Shown piece after piece: positions 2,775-7,236 of a stretch of 7,236 nt of DNA. The translations under genes were made by a program, and so were the position numbers. The number at the start of each line of letters is the position of its first letter. Position 1 is the stretch's first letter. Under the pieces are notes generated by a model. The model saw only the letters and a list, made by a program, of their open reading frames with translations, did no database searches and was not told the DNA's origin. Location of the stretch: the IMG/VR virus record IMGVR_UViG_2706794665_000008. One strand, 5' to 3'. The DNA comes from a virus (taxonomy: Duplodnaviria > Heunggongvirae > Uroviricota > Caudoviricetes).

Positions 2775-5700
2775 ATGGGTAAAGGCAGCAGTAAGGGGCA
2801 TACCCCGCGCGAAGCGAAGGACAACCTGAAATCCACGCAGTTGCTGAGTGTGATTGATGCCATCAGCGAAGGGCCGGTTGACGGTCCGGTGGATGGATTA
2901 AAAAGCGTGCTGCTGAACGGTACGCCGGTCCTGGACAGCGAGGGGAAGACAAACTTTTCCGGTGTTACGGTGGTGTTCCGTGCAGGTGAGCAGGAGCAGA
3001 CACCGCCGGAGGGTTTTGAATCCTCCGGCTCCGAGACGGTGCTGGGTACGGAAGTGAAATATGACACGCCGATCACCCGGACCATCACGTCGGCAAACAT
3101 CGACCGTCTGCGCCTGACCTTCGGTGTGCAGGCACTGGTGGAAACCACCTCAAAGGGTGACCGGAATCCGTCGGAAGTCCGCCTGCTGGTTCAGATACAG
3201 CGTAACGGTGGCTGGGTGACGGAAAAAGACATCACCATTAAGGGCAAAACCACTTCGCAGTATCTGGCCTCGGTGGTGGTGGGTAACCTGCCGCCGCGCC
3301 CGTTTAATATCCGGATGCGCAGGATGACACCGGACAGCACCACAGACCAGCTGCAGAACAAAACGCTCTGGTCGTCGTACACCGAAATCATCGATGTGAA
3401 ACAGTGCTACCCGAACACGGCGCTGGTCGGCGTGCAGGTGGATTCAGAGCAGTTCGGTAACCAGCAGGTGAGTCGCAATTATCATCTTCGCGGGCGCATT
3501 CTGCAGGTGCCGTCGAACTATAACCCGCAGACGCGGCAATACAGCGGTATCTGGGACGGAACGCTTAAGCCAGCATACAGCAACAACATGGCCTGGTGTC
3601 TGTGGGACATGCTCACTCATCCGCGCTACGGCATGGGGAAACGTCTTGGTGCGGCAGATGTGGACAAATGGGCGCTGTATGTCATCGGCCAGTACTGCGA
3701 CCAGTCAGTGACGGACGGATTTGGCGGCACGGAGCCGCGCATCACCTGTAACTCTTACCTGACCACACAGCGTAAGGCGTGGGATGTTCTCAGTGATTTC
3801 TGCTCGGCGATGCGCTGTATGCCGGTATGGAACGGACAGATGCTGACGTTCGTGCAGGACCGACCGTCGGATAAGGTGTGGACCTATAACCGCAGTAATG
3901 TGGTGATGCCGGACGATGGCGCGCCGTTCCGCTACAGCTTCAGCGCCCTGAAGGACCGCCATAATGCCGTTGAGGTGAACTGGATTGACCCAGATAACGG
4001 CTGGGAGACGGCGACAGAGCTTGTGGAGGATACGCAGGCCATTGCCCGTTACGGTCGTAATGTCACGAAGATGGATGCCTTTGGCTGTACCAGCCGGGGG
4101 CAGGCACACCGAGCCGGGCTGTGGCTGATTAAAACGGAACTGCTGGAAACGCAGACCGTGGACTTCAGCGTGGGCGCAGAAGGGCTTCGCCATGTACCGG
4201 GTGATGTCATTGAAATCTGCGATGATGATTATGCCGGTATCAGCACCGGTGGTCGCGTACTGGCGGTGAACAGCCAGACCCGGACGCTGACGCTCGACCG
4301 TGAAATCACGCTGCCGTCCTCCGGTACCACGCTGATAAGCCTGGTTGACGGAAGTGGCAATCCGGTCAGCGTGGAGGTCCAGTCCGTCACCGACGGCGTG
4401 AAGGTGAAAGTGAGCCGGGTTCCTGACGGCGTTGCAGAATACAGCGTGTGGGGGCTGAAGCTGCCGACGCTGCGCCAGCGTCTGTTCCGCTGCGTGAGTA
4501 TCCGTGAGAACGACGACGGCACGTATGCCATCACCGCCGTGCAGCATGTGCCGGAAAAAGAGGCCATCGTGGATAACGGGGCACACTTTGACGGTGACCG
4601 GCGCGGCACGGTGAATGGTGTCACGCCGCCAGCGGTGCAGCATCTGACCGCCGAAGTCACCGCAGACAGCGGGGAATATCAGGTGCTGGCGCGATGGGAC
4701 ACGCCGAAGGTGGTGAAGGGTGTGAGCTTCCTGCTTCGCCTGACCGTGGCAGCGGACGACGGCAGTGAGCGGCTGGTCAGCACAGCCAGGACGACGGAAA
4801 CCACATACCGCTTCAGGCAGCTGGCGCTGGGGAATTACAGTCTGACAGTCCGGGCGGTAAATGCCCGGGGGCAGCAGGGCGATCAGATATTCATGAACGA
4901 CGTGTTCCTGAAATGCCTGACGGCTCCGACCATTACCAGCGGCGGTAATCCNNNNNNNNNNNNNNNNNNNNNNNNNNNNNNNNNNNNNNNNNNNNNNNNN
5001 NNNNNNNNNNNNNNNNNNNNNNNNNNNNNNNNNNNNNNNNNNNNNNNNNNNNNNNNNNNNNNNNNNNNNNNNNNNNNNNNNNNNNNNNNNNNNNNNNNNN
5101 NNNNNNNNNNNNNNNNNNNNNNNNNNNNNNNNNNNNNNNNNNNNNNNNNNNNNNNNNNNNNNNNNNNNNNNNNNNNNNNNNNNNNNNNNNNNNNNNNNNN
5201 NNNNNNNNNNNNNNNNNNNNNNNGATTATTATTTTTACGTTCGCAGTGTGAACACCGTTGGCAAATCGGCATTTGTGGAGGCCATCGGTCGGGCGAGCGA
5301 TGATGCAGAAGGTTATCTGAATTTTTATAAAGGGTTGATCAATAAAACGCATCTCGGCAAGGAGTTGTGGACGCAGATTGATAACGGTCAGCTTGCGCCG
5401 GACCTGACTGAAATCAGGACGTCCATTACGAATGTCAGCAATGAAATCACGCAAACCGTCAATAAAAAACTGGAAAATCAGAGTGCTGCAATCCAGCAGA
5501 TACAGAAAGTTCAGGTTGATACAAATAATAACCTGAACAGCATGTGGGCTGTGAAGCTGCAACAGATGAAGGACGGACGCCTTTATATTGCGGGTATCGG
5601 TGCCGGTATTGAGAATACGCCAGCAGGAATGCAGAGTCAGGTGCTGCTGGCGGCAGACAGGATTGCGATGATTAATCCTGCGAATGGCAACACAAAGCCG

Positions 5701-6354
5701 ATGTTTGTTGGTCAGGGCGATCAGATATTCATGAACGACGTGTTCCTGAAATGCCTGACGGCTCCGACCATTACCAGCGGCGGTAATCCTCCGGCATTTT
5801 CCCTGACACCTGGCGGACGGCTGACGGCGAAAAATGCCGATATCAGCGGTAACGTGAACGCGAACTCCGGGACGCTCAACAACGTCACGATTAATAAGAA
5901 CTGTCGGGTTCTGGGAAAATTGTCCGCGAACCAGATTGAAGGCGATCTCGTTAAAACAGTGGGCAAACCTTTCCCACGGGACTCCCGGGCACCGGAGAGG
6001 TGGCCATCAGGGACCATTACCGTCAGGGTTTATGACGATCAGCCGTTTGATCGGCAAATTGTTATTCCCGCGGTGGCGTTTCGCGGTGCTAAACATGAGC
6101 GGAAGAATAACAATATTTATTCGTCATGCCGCCTGATAGTGAAGAAAAACGGTGCTGAAATTTATAACCGAACGACCCTGGATAATACGCTGATATATAC
6201 GGGTGTTATTGATATGCCTGCCGGTCACGGTCACATGACGCTGGAGTTTTCTGTATCGGCATGGCTGGTAAATGGCTGGTATCCCACAGCAAGTATCAGC
6301 GATTTGCTGGTTGTGGTGATGAAGAAAGCCACTGCAGGCATCACGATTAGCTGA
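2775..6354 (+). CDS. J: Host specificity / central tail fibre protein J (interrupted by N run 4952-5223; N- and C-terminal parts are in different frames)
   Basis: N-terminal part (2775-4951, frame 3) starts [54 protein letters not shown]..., matching lambda gpJ. C-terminal part (5224-6354, frame 1) starts [32 protein letters not shown]... and contains the conserved [29 protein letters not shown] block before the TGA at 6352-6354. The span is 3580 nt, not a multiple of 3. Confidence 0.85.
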
Positions 6355-6373
6355 ATTTTATAACCCAGATACG

Positions 6374-6400
6374 GGCACCAGAAATGGTGCCTTTTTTATT
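6374..6400 (+). terminator. Rho-independent terminator downstream of J
   Basis: Perfect 6-bp stem ggcacc (6374-6379) / ggtgcc (6386-6391) with a 6-nt loop, followed by TTTTTTATT (6392-6400), 20 nt after the J stop. Confidence 0.55.
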
Positions 6401-6421
6401 GCAGAAAAGCGAGAGGTAATT

Positions 6422-6760
6422 ATGCGTAAAGTTTGTGCAGCCATTTTGTCCGCAGCCATCTGTCTGGCCGTATCCGGTGCGCCTGCATGGGCGTCTGAAC
6501 ATCAGTCCACGCTGAGCGCCGGGTATCTTCAGACCCATACTGATATGCCAGGCAGCGATGACCTGAAGGGCATTAACGTGAAATACCGTTATGAGTTTAC
6601 GGACACGCTGGGGCTGATTACGTCATTCAGTTNGGCGTGGGGGGCTGGCGTGCAGTTTAACCCGACCGAATCCGTGGCCATTGACCTTGCTTATGAAGGT
6701 TCCGGCAGTGGTGACTGGCGCACTGACGGTTTCATCGTGGGTGTCGGTTATAAGTTCTGA
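6422..6760 (+). CDS. lom: Lom-like outer-membrane protein (Ail/Lom/PagC family), internally deleted; likely non-functional
   Basis: 112-aa ORF with a signal peptide (MRKVCAAILSAAICLAVSGAPAWA|SE), a Lom-like N-terminal block (LKGINVKYRYEFTD) and the Lom C-terminus (AIDLAYEGSGSGDWRTDGFIVGVGYKF, terminal Phe). Lambda Lom is roughly 200 aa as I recall, so the central part is missing. A single 'n' at 6633 sits at the junction. Confidence 0.7.
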   Translation: MRKVCAAILSAAICLAVSGAPAWASEHQSTLSAGYLQTHTDMPGSDDLKGINVKYRYEFTDTLGLITSFSXAWGAGVQFNPTESVAIDLAYEGSGSGDWRTDGFIVGVGYKF

Positions 6761-6823: not shown

Positions 6824-7150
6824 ATGGCAGTAAAGATTTCAGGTGTACTGAAAGATGGGGCGGGTAAACCTGTCGTAAATTGTGCGATTGAACTGCGGGC
6901 CAGAAGAACCAGTCCGACCGTTGTGGCACACGTTGTTGCCACTTGCGTGACGGACAATAACGGTGCTTATGTGATTGAGGCTGAGCCGGGGTATTACGAG
7001 GTTGCGCTTCACTGTAACGGCTGGCAGCCAACCCGTGTCGGGGATATTGATGTGGCACCGACTGATGCACCGGGGACACTGAACGCGTTTCTGAATGCAC
7101 CAAAGGATGGTGATTTACGTCCGGAGGTGATGAAGTGTCAGCGCCAGTGA
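6824..7150 (+). CDS. stf: Side tail fibre protein Stf, N-terminal fragment (108 codons, then stop)
   Basis: From ATG 6824 the translation MAVKISGVLKDGAGKPVVNCAIELRARR... matches the N-terminus of lambda Stf (MAVKISGVLKDGTGKPV.NC...) as I recall it. The ORF-track start at 6782 would include the lom terminator hairpin, so I reject it. TGA at 7148-7150, and the other two forward frames also hit stops within about 10 codons. Confidence 0.6.
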   Translation: MAVKISGVLKDGAGKPVVNCAIELRARRTSPTVVAHVVATCVTDNNGAYVIEAEPGYYEVALHCNGWQPTRVGDIDVAPTDAPGTLNAFLNAPKDGDLRPEVMKCQRQ

Positions 7151-7236
7151 TATAAGACGGTAATTCGCCATTTGGATTGTCCGCTCCACCCAACATGTTG
7201 TTTCCTTAAGGTTCTCACACCAGAAAGGACATCAAC

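Follow-up and report, generated by a model that had tools for sequence, protein, structure and literature searches.

Lambdoid phages exchange the receptor-binding ends of their tip-attachment protein J as modules. Lambda J (NC_001416; structures 8xcj and 8xck) binds LamB, and porin binding sets off a conformational relay from the receptor-binding domain (RBD) through the central straight fibre (CSF) to the alpha-helical shaft (AHS), a domain name that we take from the same study (PMC11101478). Phage 21 J (OL657228) also has LamB as its native receptor, and one mutation in J switches it to OmpC. OmpC is the receptor of both A8 gpJ (9wca, 9wcb) and phi330 J (PV189401), and the requirement of phi330 for OmpC was established by Keio knockout and complementation (PMC12502783). 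Phage 434 appears to bind OmpC through an independent solution. The closest characterized relative of the RBD described here is gpJ 1A2 (Brödel et al., Nature 2024, PMC11338833), in which lambda J, joined at residue 964 (the NADISG joint), carries the RBD of J (AP000400) from the VT1-Sakai (Sp15) prophage. With this chimera, the target of lambda particles changes from LamB to OmpC of the EDL933 type, not that of K-12: in delta-lamB delta-ompC cells, delivery exceeds 98% with EDL933-type OmpC compared to ~2% with K-12 OmpC. OmpC is highly polymorphic, with 74 variants noted, and 1A2 and/or A8 function on 21 of 23 OmpC variants in that study.

The J locus and its scaffold gap

We analyzed a window of 7,236 nt, meaning the whole stretch of DNA at its full length. 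Judged by gene order and homology, the window derives from a lambda-like prophage of Escherichia/Shigella, and positions 5224-6354 are the C-terminal 376 codons of its tip-attachment (central tail fibre) gene J (Table 1). The window ORFs follow the tail-module order H-M-L-K-I-J-lom-stf, as in annotated records of prophages and phages. The translation of 5224-6354 reproduces the peptides quoted in an earlier sequence-only reading and ends with a stop codon at 6352-6354. All six Pfam families of gpJ (Phage-tail_3, FNIII-A_GpJ, Ig_J, Ig_J_second, Phage_Tail_Tip and Ig_GpJ_C) score above the curated cut-offs across the two J fragments, and the complete set is also present on an intact gpJ 99% identical to the window J. 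The N-terminal part has 98.2% nucleotide identity to gpJ of NZ_CP065615. Annotated records show nothing equivalent to two minus-strand ORFs, at 4933-5562 and 5721-6017, which were dismissed as mechanical.

Table 1 Features of J and its surroundings in the window
Feature	Position	Strand	Details
J N-terminal 703 codons (hub domains, FNIII-A, first Ig-like domain; to ...GQQGD)	2775-4883	+	679/703 identical to lambda J; Pfam Phage-tail_3, FNIII-A_GpJ, Ig_J
Misplaced 77-nt copy of 5713-5789 at contig end	4875-4951	+	Self-BLAST 100% over 77 nt
Scaffold gap, 272 N	4952-5223	.	Replaces 240 nt (80 codons, PASVSF...PGH, most of second Ig-like/FNIII-2 domain) in closest complete genome
End of second Ig-like/FNIII-2 domain (DYYFY...AEGYL), lambda-like	5224-5319	+	30/32 identical to lambda; Pfam Ig_J_second residues 1-35
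AHS, long form (NFYKG...NNLNS)	5320-5541	+	74 residues, 46 in lambda; 16/46 identical to lambda
CSF (beta prism)	5542-5946	+	77/103 identical to lambda (MWAVK..NADISG); Pfam Phage_Tail_Tip
Conserved block QIFMND...NADISG inside CSF, putative recombination joint	5713-5850	+	54/60 identical to lambda (QGDQIFM...NNVTI)
RBD, Ig-like (LVKTVGK...AGITIS and stop)	5947-6354	+	Pfam Ig_GpJ_C, E = 6e-37; VT1-Sakai/1A2 class
Hypervariable RBD loop HERKNNN (VT1-Sakai/1A2: HEKEHTD)	6094-6114	+	Between model strands 86-88 and 95-105
Second variable RBD loop WLVNGWY (Sakai: WLVNNWY)	6262-6282	+	Variable in class; aligns with phi330 A1015-P1020 loop
Terminator-like hairpin and T run downstream of J	6373-6402	+	Equivalent site annotated as terminator in phages 21 and 434

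A single ORF of ~1,130-1,165 codons is expected for J, but here J lacks one continuous ORF and is split by the gap, beyond which 5224 is the first base, and by an exact second copy of conserved-block DNA at the contig end. The copy creates a false QQGD/QIFMND junction via a 10-nt microhomology, CAGGGCGATC, and the reading frame is not kept across copy and gap. Both J fragments are nevertheless open. The N runs were also considered as deliberate equal-length masks, an idea that we rejected because a single N stands for ~264 nt of lom; the idea also conflicts with the combined length of the J gap and the misplaced copy, which exceeds the reference by 100 nt.

The junction could instead be a real in-frame deletion of 246 codons, in this or in a second prophage copy, which would make J a decayed remnant of an internal deletion or a defective prophage and leave its RBD without current function. 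Mapped onto the reference, the junction skips 738 nt in frame between two QGD-encoding microhomologies, an IS3-family end lies at 7136 after stf, and frameshifts occur in many database RBD fragments of the VT1-Sakai/1A2 class and in the J of VT1-Sakai itself. We nevertheless consider decay unlikely. At exactly 77 nt, the copy has a k-mer length commonly used by assemblers, and it sits at a contig end beside the Ns, while the other gaps (241 N, and the single N for 264 nt of lom) point to scaffolder behavior. Furthermore, the junction is contiguous in none of 5,426 complete E. coli genomes, an exact search of the genome contigs collection gave no match to it, and both J parts are 98-99% identical to an intact gpJ. 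An assembly artifact remains our preferred explanation, and the window provides an example of short-read assembly failing within J in a multi-prophage genome. The prophage as a whole may be defective, as stf runs into an IS element and the J frame is interrupted.

Mosaic relationship to lambda J

Identity to lambda J changes abruptly along the protein, from 97% in the N-terminus and 94% at the end of FNIII-2 to 35% in the AHS, 75% in the CSF and 39% in the RBD. The sequence-only reading had described a conserved core between divergent flanks, with a different final stretch of about 150 residues. Both parts hold: the QIFMND...NADISG block is 90% identical to lambda, compared to 16 of 46 residues in the AHS and 60 of 150 at the C-terminal end. 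Over the whole 376-residue stretch, 196 of 348 aligned residues are identical, with a length difference of 28-29 residues. Near-identity across the last 250 residues, which would speak against a mosaic, is absent (136/250).

The same pattern is seen in the DNA, so that the proposed mosaic is real at both levels. In a sliding-window comparison with lambda, nucleotide identity starts at 92-98% (2775-4884), drops to 22-62% (~5330-5690), rises again to 72-87% (~5630-5870) and stays at 47-59% from ~5930 to the end. Lambda and 434 depart from the window sequence at ~5320 and return at ~5690, WGPS2 meets it at ~5830 (NADISG) and phage 21 departs at ~5930-5950. All phages of the panel have 72-98% nucleotide identity in the conserved block, and the diverging partners differ on each side of it.

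The domain order is that of lambda, whose CSF core, including F924, is shared, but the AHS is 28 residues longer. While the divergence of this helical segment from lambda stands, the long form itself is common: it is found in phages 21, cdtI, phi330, 640R1, VT1-Sakai and WGPS2, and it is lambda and 434 that are the short outliers. The AHS is 88-91% identical to those of phage 21, cdtI, 640R1 and VT1-Sakai. For phage 21 the AHS and CSF are 89-92% identical to the window, whereas its RBD is 63% identical. The J proteins of 434 and cdtI have the same domain order and CSF block, but their RBDs are only 41% identical and have longer loops.

From these comparisons we conclude that J is a recombinational mosaic of four pieces. 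These are a lambda-type hub and FNIII portion, a long AHS of the phage 21/cdtI type, the universally conserved beta-prism core and an Ig-like RBD of the VT1-Sakai (Sp15)/PPompW/Stx2a_WGPS2 class. The conserved core ending in NADISG would then serve as the homology patch at which RBD cassettes are swapped.

The receptor-binding domain and its probable receptor

Complete E. coli genomes contain annotated gpJ with an RBD 100% identical to that of the window (FDAARGOS_943 gpJ; WP_197939856 of NZ_CP065615). Next come 640R1, VT1-Sakai and WGPS2 at 91-94% identity, followed by phage 21 (63%), phi330 (61%), 434 (41%) and lambda (39%). At a nucleotide identity of 90-95%, the VT1-Sakai/PPompW/Stx2a_WGPS2 class is carried by roughly half of the 5,426 complete E. 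coli genomes. The allele is widespread and already annotated, its RBD class has been studied before and nothing in it is new.

AlphaFold2 applied to the single sequence of the 376-residue fragment gave an unusable model (pLDDT 35.8), and we therefore modeled the RBD alone from a 25-sequence alignment (pLDDT 80.7). The best Foldseek matches of this model are 9wcb, 9wca, 8xcj and 8xck (E = 1e-20 to 3e-17, TM 0.73-0.74). They include A8 gpJ with OmpC (9wcb; 63% identity, TM 0.73) and lambda gpJ with LamB (8xcj), the comparison with lambda that the sequence-only reading had called for. A PDB sequence search likewise placed A8 gpJ first (9wca, E = 3e-139) and lambda gpJ next. The window RBD is accordingly predicted to have the gpJ Ig-like fold, superposing on the solved gpJ RBDs. 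A8 and phi330 share this fold at 61-63% identity, and phi330 also has a long AHS like that of the window, but in both the first loop is four residues shorter and the second loop six residues longer.

The comparison with 1A2 is much closer. From NADISG to the end, the window and VT1-Sakai/1A2 are identical at 161 of 173 residues, with the same length and no indels, and in the RBD proper at 124 of 135 (92%), which places the window RBD in the VT1-Sakai/1A2 class, taken as RBDs at least ~90% identical to 1A2/Sakai without indels. The 1A2 sequence was read in three frames from Supplementary file 1 of PMC11338833, a noisy machine-read recoded DNA with frameshifts in which ~163 of 173 residues are readable; its C-terminus has the Sakai residues at 11 of 12 diagnostic positions, and the twelfth is unreadable. 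Searches of the Eligo supplements with peptide strings and native codons gave no match, the sequences there being recoded DNA. Literature on the receptors of 640R1, the ECOR13/PhiR phages and the Stx "host specificity protein J" yielded nothing usable, and a large receptor-screen preprint was set aside as a source since it covers gpJ of Drexlerviridae, another class.

By analogy with 1A2, OmpC rather than LamB is the likely receptor. We consider OmpC most probable because the 93%-identical 1A2 RBD, placed on lambda J, makes delivery dependent on the OmpC variant in cells lacking LamB. To the reading as a whole, a mosaic J with a VT1-Sakai-class RBD that would use OmpC, we assign a probability of roughly 0.7. 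The earlier suggestion that this allele may target a receptor other than LamB is thereby supported by published experiments on a near-identical RBD. In the proposed mechanism, the RBD trimer would insert its bottom loops into the trimeric porin, and binding would trigger a relay from RBD to CSF to AHS as in lambda.

It is conceivable that the RBD still uses LamB like phage 21, in which case the divergence would reflect alternative solutions for one receptor. The native receptor of phage 21 is LamB, its RBD belongs to the joint-closest characterized class outside the Sakai group, and the loop lengths of the window RBD match lambda and not phage 21, whose loop lengths follow phi330, or phi330 itself. 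However, the 1A2 RBD is active in delta-lamB cells and fails with K-12 OmpC alone, and the resemblance to the LamB-binding RBD of lambda (J residues ~990-1132) is distant, at 53 of 135 residues. This makes LamB use highly improbable.

Weighing against OmpC, the experiments cover 1A2, which differs from the window allele at 12 of 173 residues. Very few changes in J are enough to switch the receptor, as the single mutation of phage 21 shows, and the RBDs of phi330 (OmpC) and phage 21 (LamB) are 80% identical. The context of the RBD differs as well, as 1A2 sits on the short AHS of lambda and the window RBD on a natural J with a long AHS.

A probable receptor class can be assigned to a J allele from its sequence, with lambda and phage 21 as references for LamB and 434, phi330/A8 and 1A2 as references for OmpC. 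RBDs of the VT1-Sakai class are already used in engineered delivery particles.

Variable loops of the RBD

Five of the 12 differences from 1A2 fall in one loop, where RKNNN replaces KEHTD with a net charge shift of about +3. This loop is the most variable stretch in the class, with up to six residue types per column, and in the alignment it corresponds to a hairpin of phi330 that penetrates the OmpC barrel in an AlphaFold3 prediction (PMC12502783). The phi330 loop corresponding to WLVNGWY is predicted in the same study to touch the OmpC rim. Both predicted receptor-contact loops therefore differ from 1A2/Sakai. In total, 8 of the 12 differences lie in or beside predicted bottom loops, while little has changed in the framework of the RBD or in three of its four predicted bottom loops.

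The substitutions in these two loops might have shifted the RBD away from the OmpC variants used by 1A2, either onto entirely other OmpC variants or onto another porin, for instance OmpF or PhoE. The differences from 1A2 are concentrated in the loops that vary most among class members, these loops align with those of phi330 predicted to contact OmpC, and single J mutations alter porin use in phage 21 and lambda. The nearly unchanged framework and bottom loops argue against such a shift, and given the polymorphism of OmpC, tuning within OmpC is the simpler explanation. We consider a change of this kind quite unlikely. Under the preferred assignment to OmpC, the five substitutions in HERKNNN probably adjust the range of accepted OmpC variants. 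A more speculative and rather doubtful proposal is that the RKNNN/KEHTD and G/N changes define a sub-allele with a porin tropism unlike that of 1A2, either for another set of OmpC variants, such as those of Shigella/EIEC-like hosts, in which the exact allele occurs, or for another porin. If true, OmpC-variant specificity in this class could be read from the loop sequence as from a code. Loop positions that differ among class members are candidate determinants of selectivity between OmpC variants in phage-based delivery.

A lambda-like J with a mosaic C-terminus

The window covers the tail-tip end of a lambda-like prophage, collinear with lambda and with a prophage of E. coli FDAARGOS_943 (NZ_CP065615), the closest complete genome and our reference.

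Features of the window, with identical residues relative to lambda for the C-terminal segments of J; segments are named as in the lambda structure paper (PMC11101478)
Feature	Position	Identity to lambda
H, 3' end	34-399	
M	399-728	
L	738-1436	
K	1441-2184	
I	2082-2714	
J	2775 to 6354	
J: FNIII-2, end	5224-5319	30/32
J: alpha-helical shaft (AHS)	5320-5541	16/46, +28 residues
J: beta-prism central fibre (CSF)	5542-5946	77/103 (MWAVK..NADISG part)
J: QGDQIFM...NNVTI block inside CSF	5713-5892	54/60
J: receptor-binding domain (RBD)	5947-6351	53/135
lom	6422-6760	
stf, start	6824 onward	

J residues 1-703 (2775-4883) share 97% identity with lambda J. Translation of 5224-6354 gives the peptides of the sequence-only reading and is open to a stop; Pfam finds Ig_J_second, Phage_Tail_Tip and Ig_GpJ_C in this fragment. 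Near-identity to lambda is excluded by the identities over the C-terminal 376 residues (196/348 aligned positions, with a length difference of 28-29 residues), the last 250 (136/250) and the last 150 (60/150). The mosaic of conserved core and divergent end proposed by the sequence-only reading is borne out by the QGDQIFM...NNVTI block and the RBD. The helical segment had also been called divergent, which holds against lambda, but the long AHS is the common form: in the J alignment it is shared by phage 21, cdtI, phi330, 640R1, VT1-Sakai and Stx2a_WGPS2, and only lambda and 434 are short exceptions.

Sliding-window nucleotide identity to the window, in an alignment of nine J genes, changes in steps that differ between partners. 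For lambda and 434 it is 92-98% up to ~5300; it drops to 22-62% across the AHS and upper CSF, rises to 72-87% within the conserved block and ends at 34-59% over the RBD. Phage 21, cdtI and 640R1 are 85-98% identical across the AHS and CSF, and identity to phage 21 and cdtI falls past ~5930. VT1-Sakai and Stx2a_WGPS2 reach only 57-88% across the N-terminal two thirds and 81-97% from ~5830 (the NADISG codons) onward. The steps of the different partners identify the conserved block as a common homology patch and a site of partner switching.

A Cys codon (TGC) at 5752-5754 gives FLKCLTAP, a private substitution in a very conserved stretch where each of the eight J proteins compared with it has Arg or Tyr. 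Lambda J peptide 902-933, including F924, is the reported trigger of the Gifsy-1 prophage abortive-infection nuclease HepS (PMC13043305). The equivalent stretch (5662-5757) keeps this Phe and 25/32 residues, so J of the window is predicted to be a HepS trigger.

The receptor-binding domain and its probable receptor

The RBD cassette is of the Sakai/1A2 class.

RBD identity to the window, computed over the last ~135 residues of J
J protein	Identity	Receptor
FDAARGOS_943 gpJ	100%	
640R1	94%	
VT1-Sakai	92%	OmpC, via 1A2 chimera
Stx2a_WGPS2	91%	
Phage 21	63%	LamB
phi330	61%	OmpC
434, cdtI	41%	OmpC (434)
Lambda	39%	LamB

Brödel et al. (PMC11338833) replaced lambda J past residue 964 (the G of NADISG) with the natural C-termini A8 or 1A2, and delivery by both chimeras was OmpC-dependent in cells lacking LamB. 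The A8 chimera was functional with K-12 and with EDL933 OmpC; the 1A2 chimera was functional with EDL933-type but not with K-12 OmpC; together they covered 21/23 OmpC variants. We took 1A2 from the machine-read DNA text of their Supplementary file 1, which contains frameshift errors, and combining three frames of this noisy text made ~163/173 residues readable. Sakai and the window differ at 12 positions; 1A2 agrees with Sakai at 11 of them and is ambiguous at the twelfth, which equates 1A2 with the VT1-Sakai RBD. The window RBD is identical to 1A2 at 161/173 positions. Numbered from the N of NADISG, window residue first, the differences from 1A2/Sakai are K22E, P46A, R84S, RKNNN90-94KEHTD, K104R, T115A, T123S and G148N.

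That J uses a receptor other than lambda's, as the sequence-only reading had suggested, is supported by the published OmpC use of the 93%-identical 1A2 RBD, and we consider OmpC the probable receptor (probability about 0.7). Since few mutations suffice for a receptor switch in the J family, the smaller remaining share is divided between LamB and another porin. Phage 21, whose native receptor is LamB, gains OmpC by one J mutation. The requirement of phi330 for OmpC was established by Keio knockout and complementation (PMC12502783).

The RBD model, built from 25 aligned homologues (pLDDT 80.7), is a nine-stranded beta sandwich. Its top Foldseek matches are 9wcb, 9wca, 8xcj and 8xck (TM 0.73-0.74), and they include both A8 gpJ with OmpC (9wcb, EDL933 OmpC) and lambda gpJ with LamB (8xcj); 9wca is A8 gpJ alone, and the A8 RBD is of the phi330 type. 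The predicted fold is thus that of the solved porin-binding gpJ RBDs, and the comparison with lambda gpJ proposed earlier gives a match. In lambda J, four bottom loops of the Ig-like RBD mediate binding to LamB (PMC11101478). An alignment of 21 class members varies most in columns 89-95, 132-135 and 144-150, which all fall in loops of the model. Two of these loops, 89-95 and 144-150, align with phi330 loops that AlphaFold3 predicts to touch OmpC, the E953-S962 hairpin in the barrel and A1015-P1020 at the rim (PMC12502783). By analogy, the trimeric RBD would dock onto trimeric OmpC, its loop sequence would determine the OmpC variants accepted, and docking would lead to rearrangement of RBD, CSF and AHS, as in lambda (PMC11101478). 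This J is a known kind of gene with a known RBD class, in which a 93%-identical variant has a published receptor; the finding is ordinary, and the loop sub-allele (HERKNNN, WLVNGWY) may affect OmpC-variant or porin preference.

Of 5,426 complete E. coli genomes, 4,550 contain a match to the 1,131-nt query, and in 2,815 of these the match covers 80% or more of the query; eight records are at least 99% identical and 2,835 are 90-95% identical. J copies per complete genome have a median of two and a maximum of twelve. Among one-genome-per-species contigs, the RBD class occurs only in E. coli, Shigella flexneri, E. albertii, E. ruysiae and two metagenome bins. Databases name its proteins host specificity protein J or DUF1983/DUF3672. 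Many entries are fragments, and several carry a frameshift. J decay seems frequent in resident prophages. Frameshifted or truncated class members include the database proteins P0027, P0034, P0035, P0040, P0041 and P0102, and VT1-Sakai J (record L003, 1659-5131) is annotated as mutation-split.

The break in J and other gaps

The window has three N runs (2324-2564, 4952-5223 and a single N at 6633). At the contig end before the second, 4875-4951 exactly copies 5713-5789 (77 nt, part of the CSF-coding block). The copy follows ...GQQGD, and the resulting QQGD|QIFMND junction is false although it looks in-frame; its sites in the reference lie 738 nt (246 codons) apart, both with the microhomology CAGGGCGATC. 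With 67 duplicated bases and 272 N in place of 240 nt (80 codons) of the reference, J loses its frame. The Cys codon stands in both repeats (4914-4916 in the copy), so the duplicate derives from the same genome's sequence. A real second J copy with an internal deletion would also give this junction, a less probable reading given that it is contiguous in none of the 5,426 complete E. coli genomes. What points instead to an artefact of short-read assembler and scaffolder, in a genome with several J copies, is the copy's length (exactly 77 nt), its site at a contig end and the two other gaps, one of them a single N for ~264 nt of lom.

In the tail assembly gene I, 241 N stand where the reference has 250 nt. 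As the single N replaces ~264 nt (88 codons) of lom, the open reading frame as written is an artefactual fusion of its two ends. Similarity to stf ends at 7135, the stf frame reaches a stop after ~109 codons, and the final 100 nt (7136-7236) match the end of an IS3-family element (matches annotated IS1397-family or plain transposase); the side tail fibre gene is thus either interrupted by an IS or fused to an IS contig. The FDAARGOS_943 prophage has an ipaH effector gene with a frameshift (L002, 10028-11673) just downstream of its tail fibre genes, and records of Shigella flexneri and S. dysenteriae likewise contain the exact window RBD, which together suggests a Shigella/EIEC-like source for the window.
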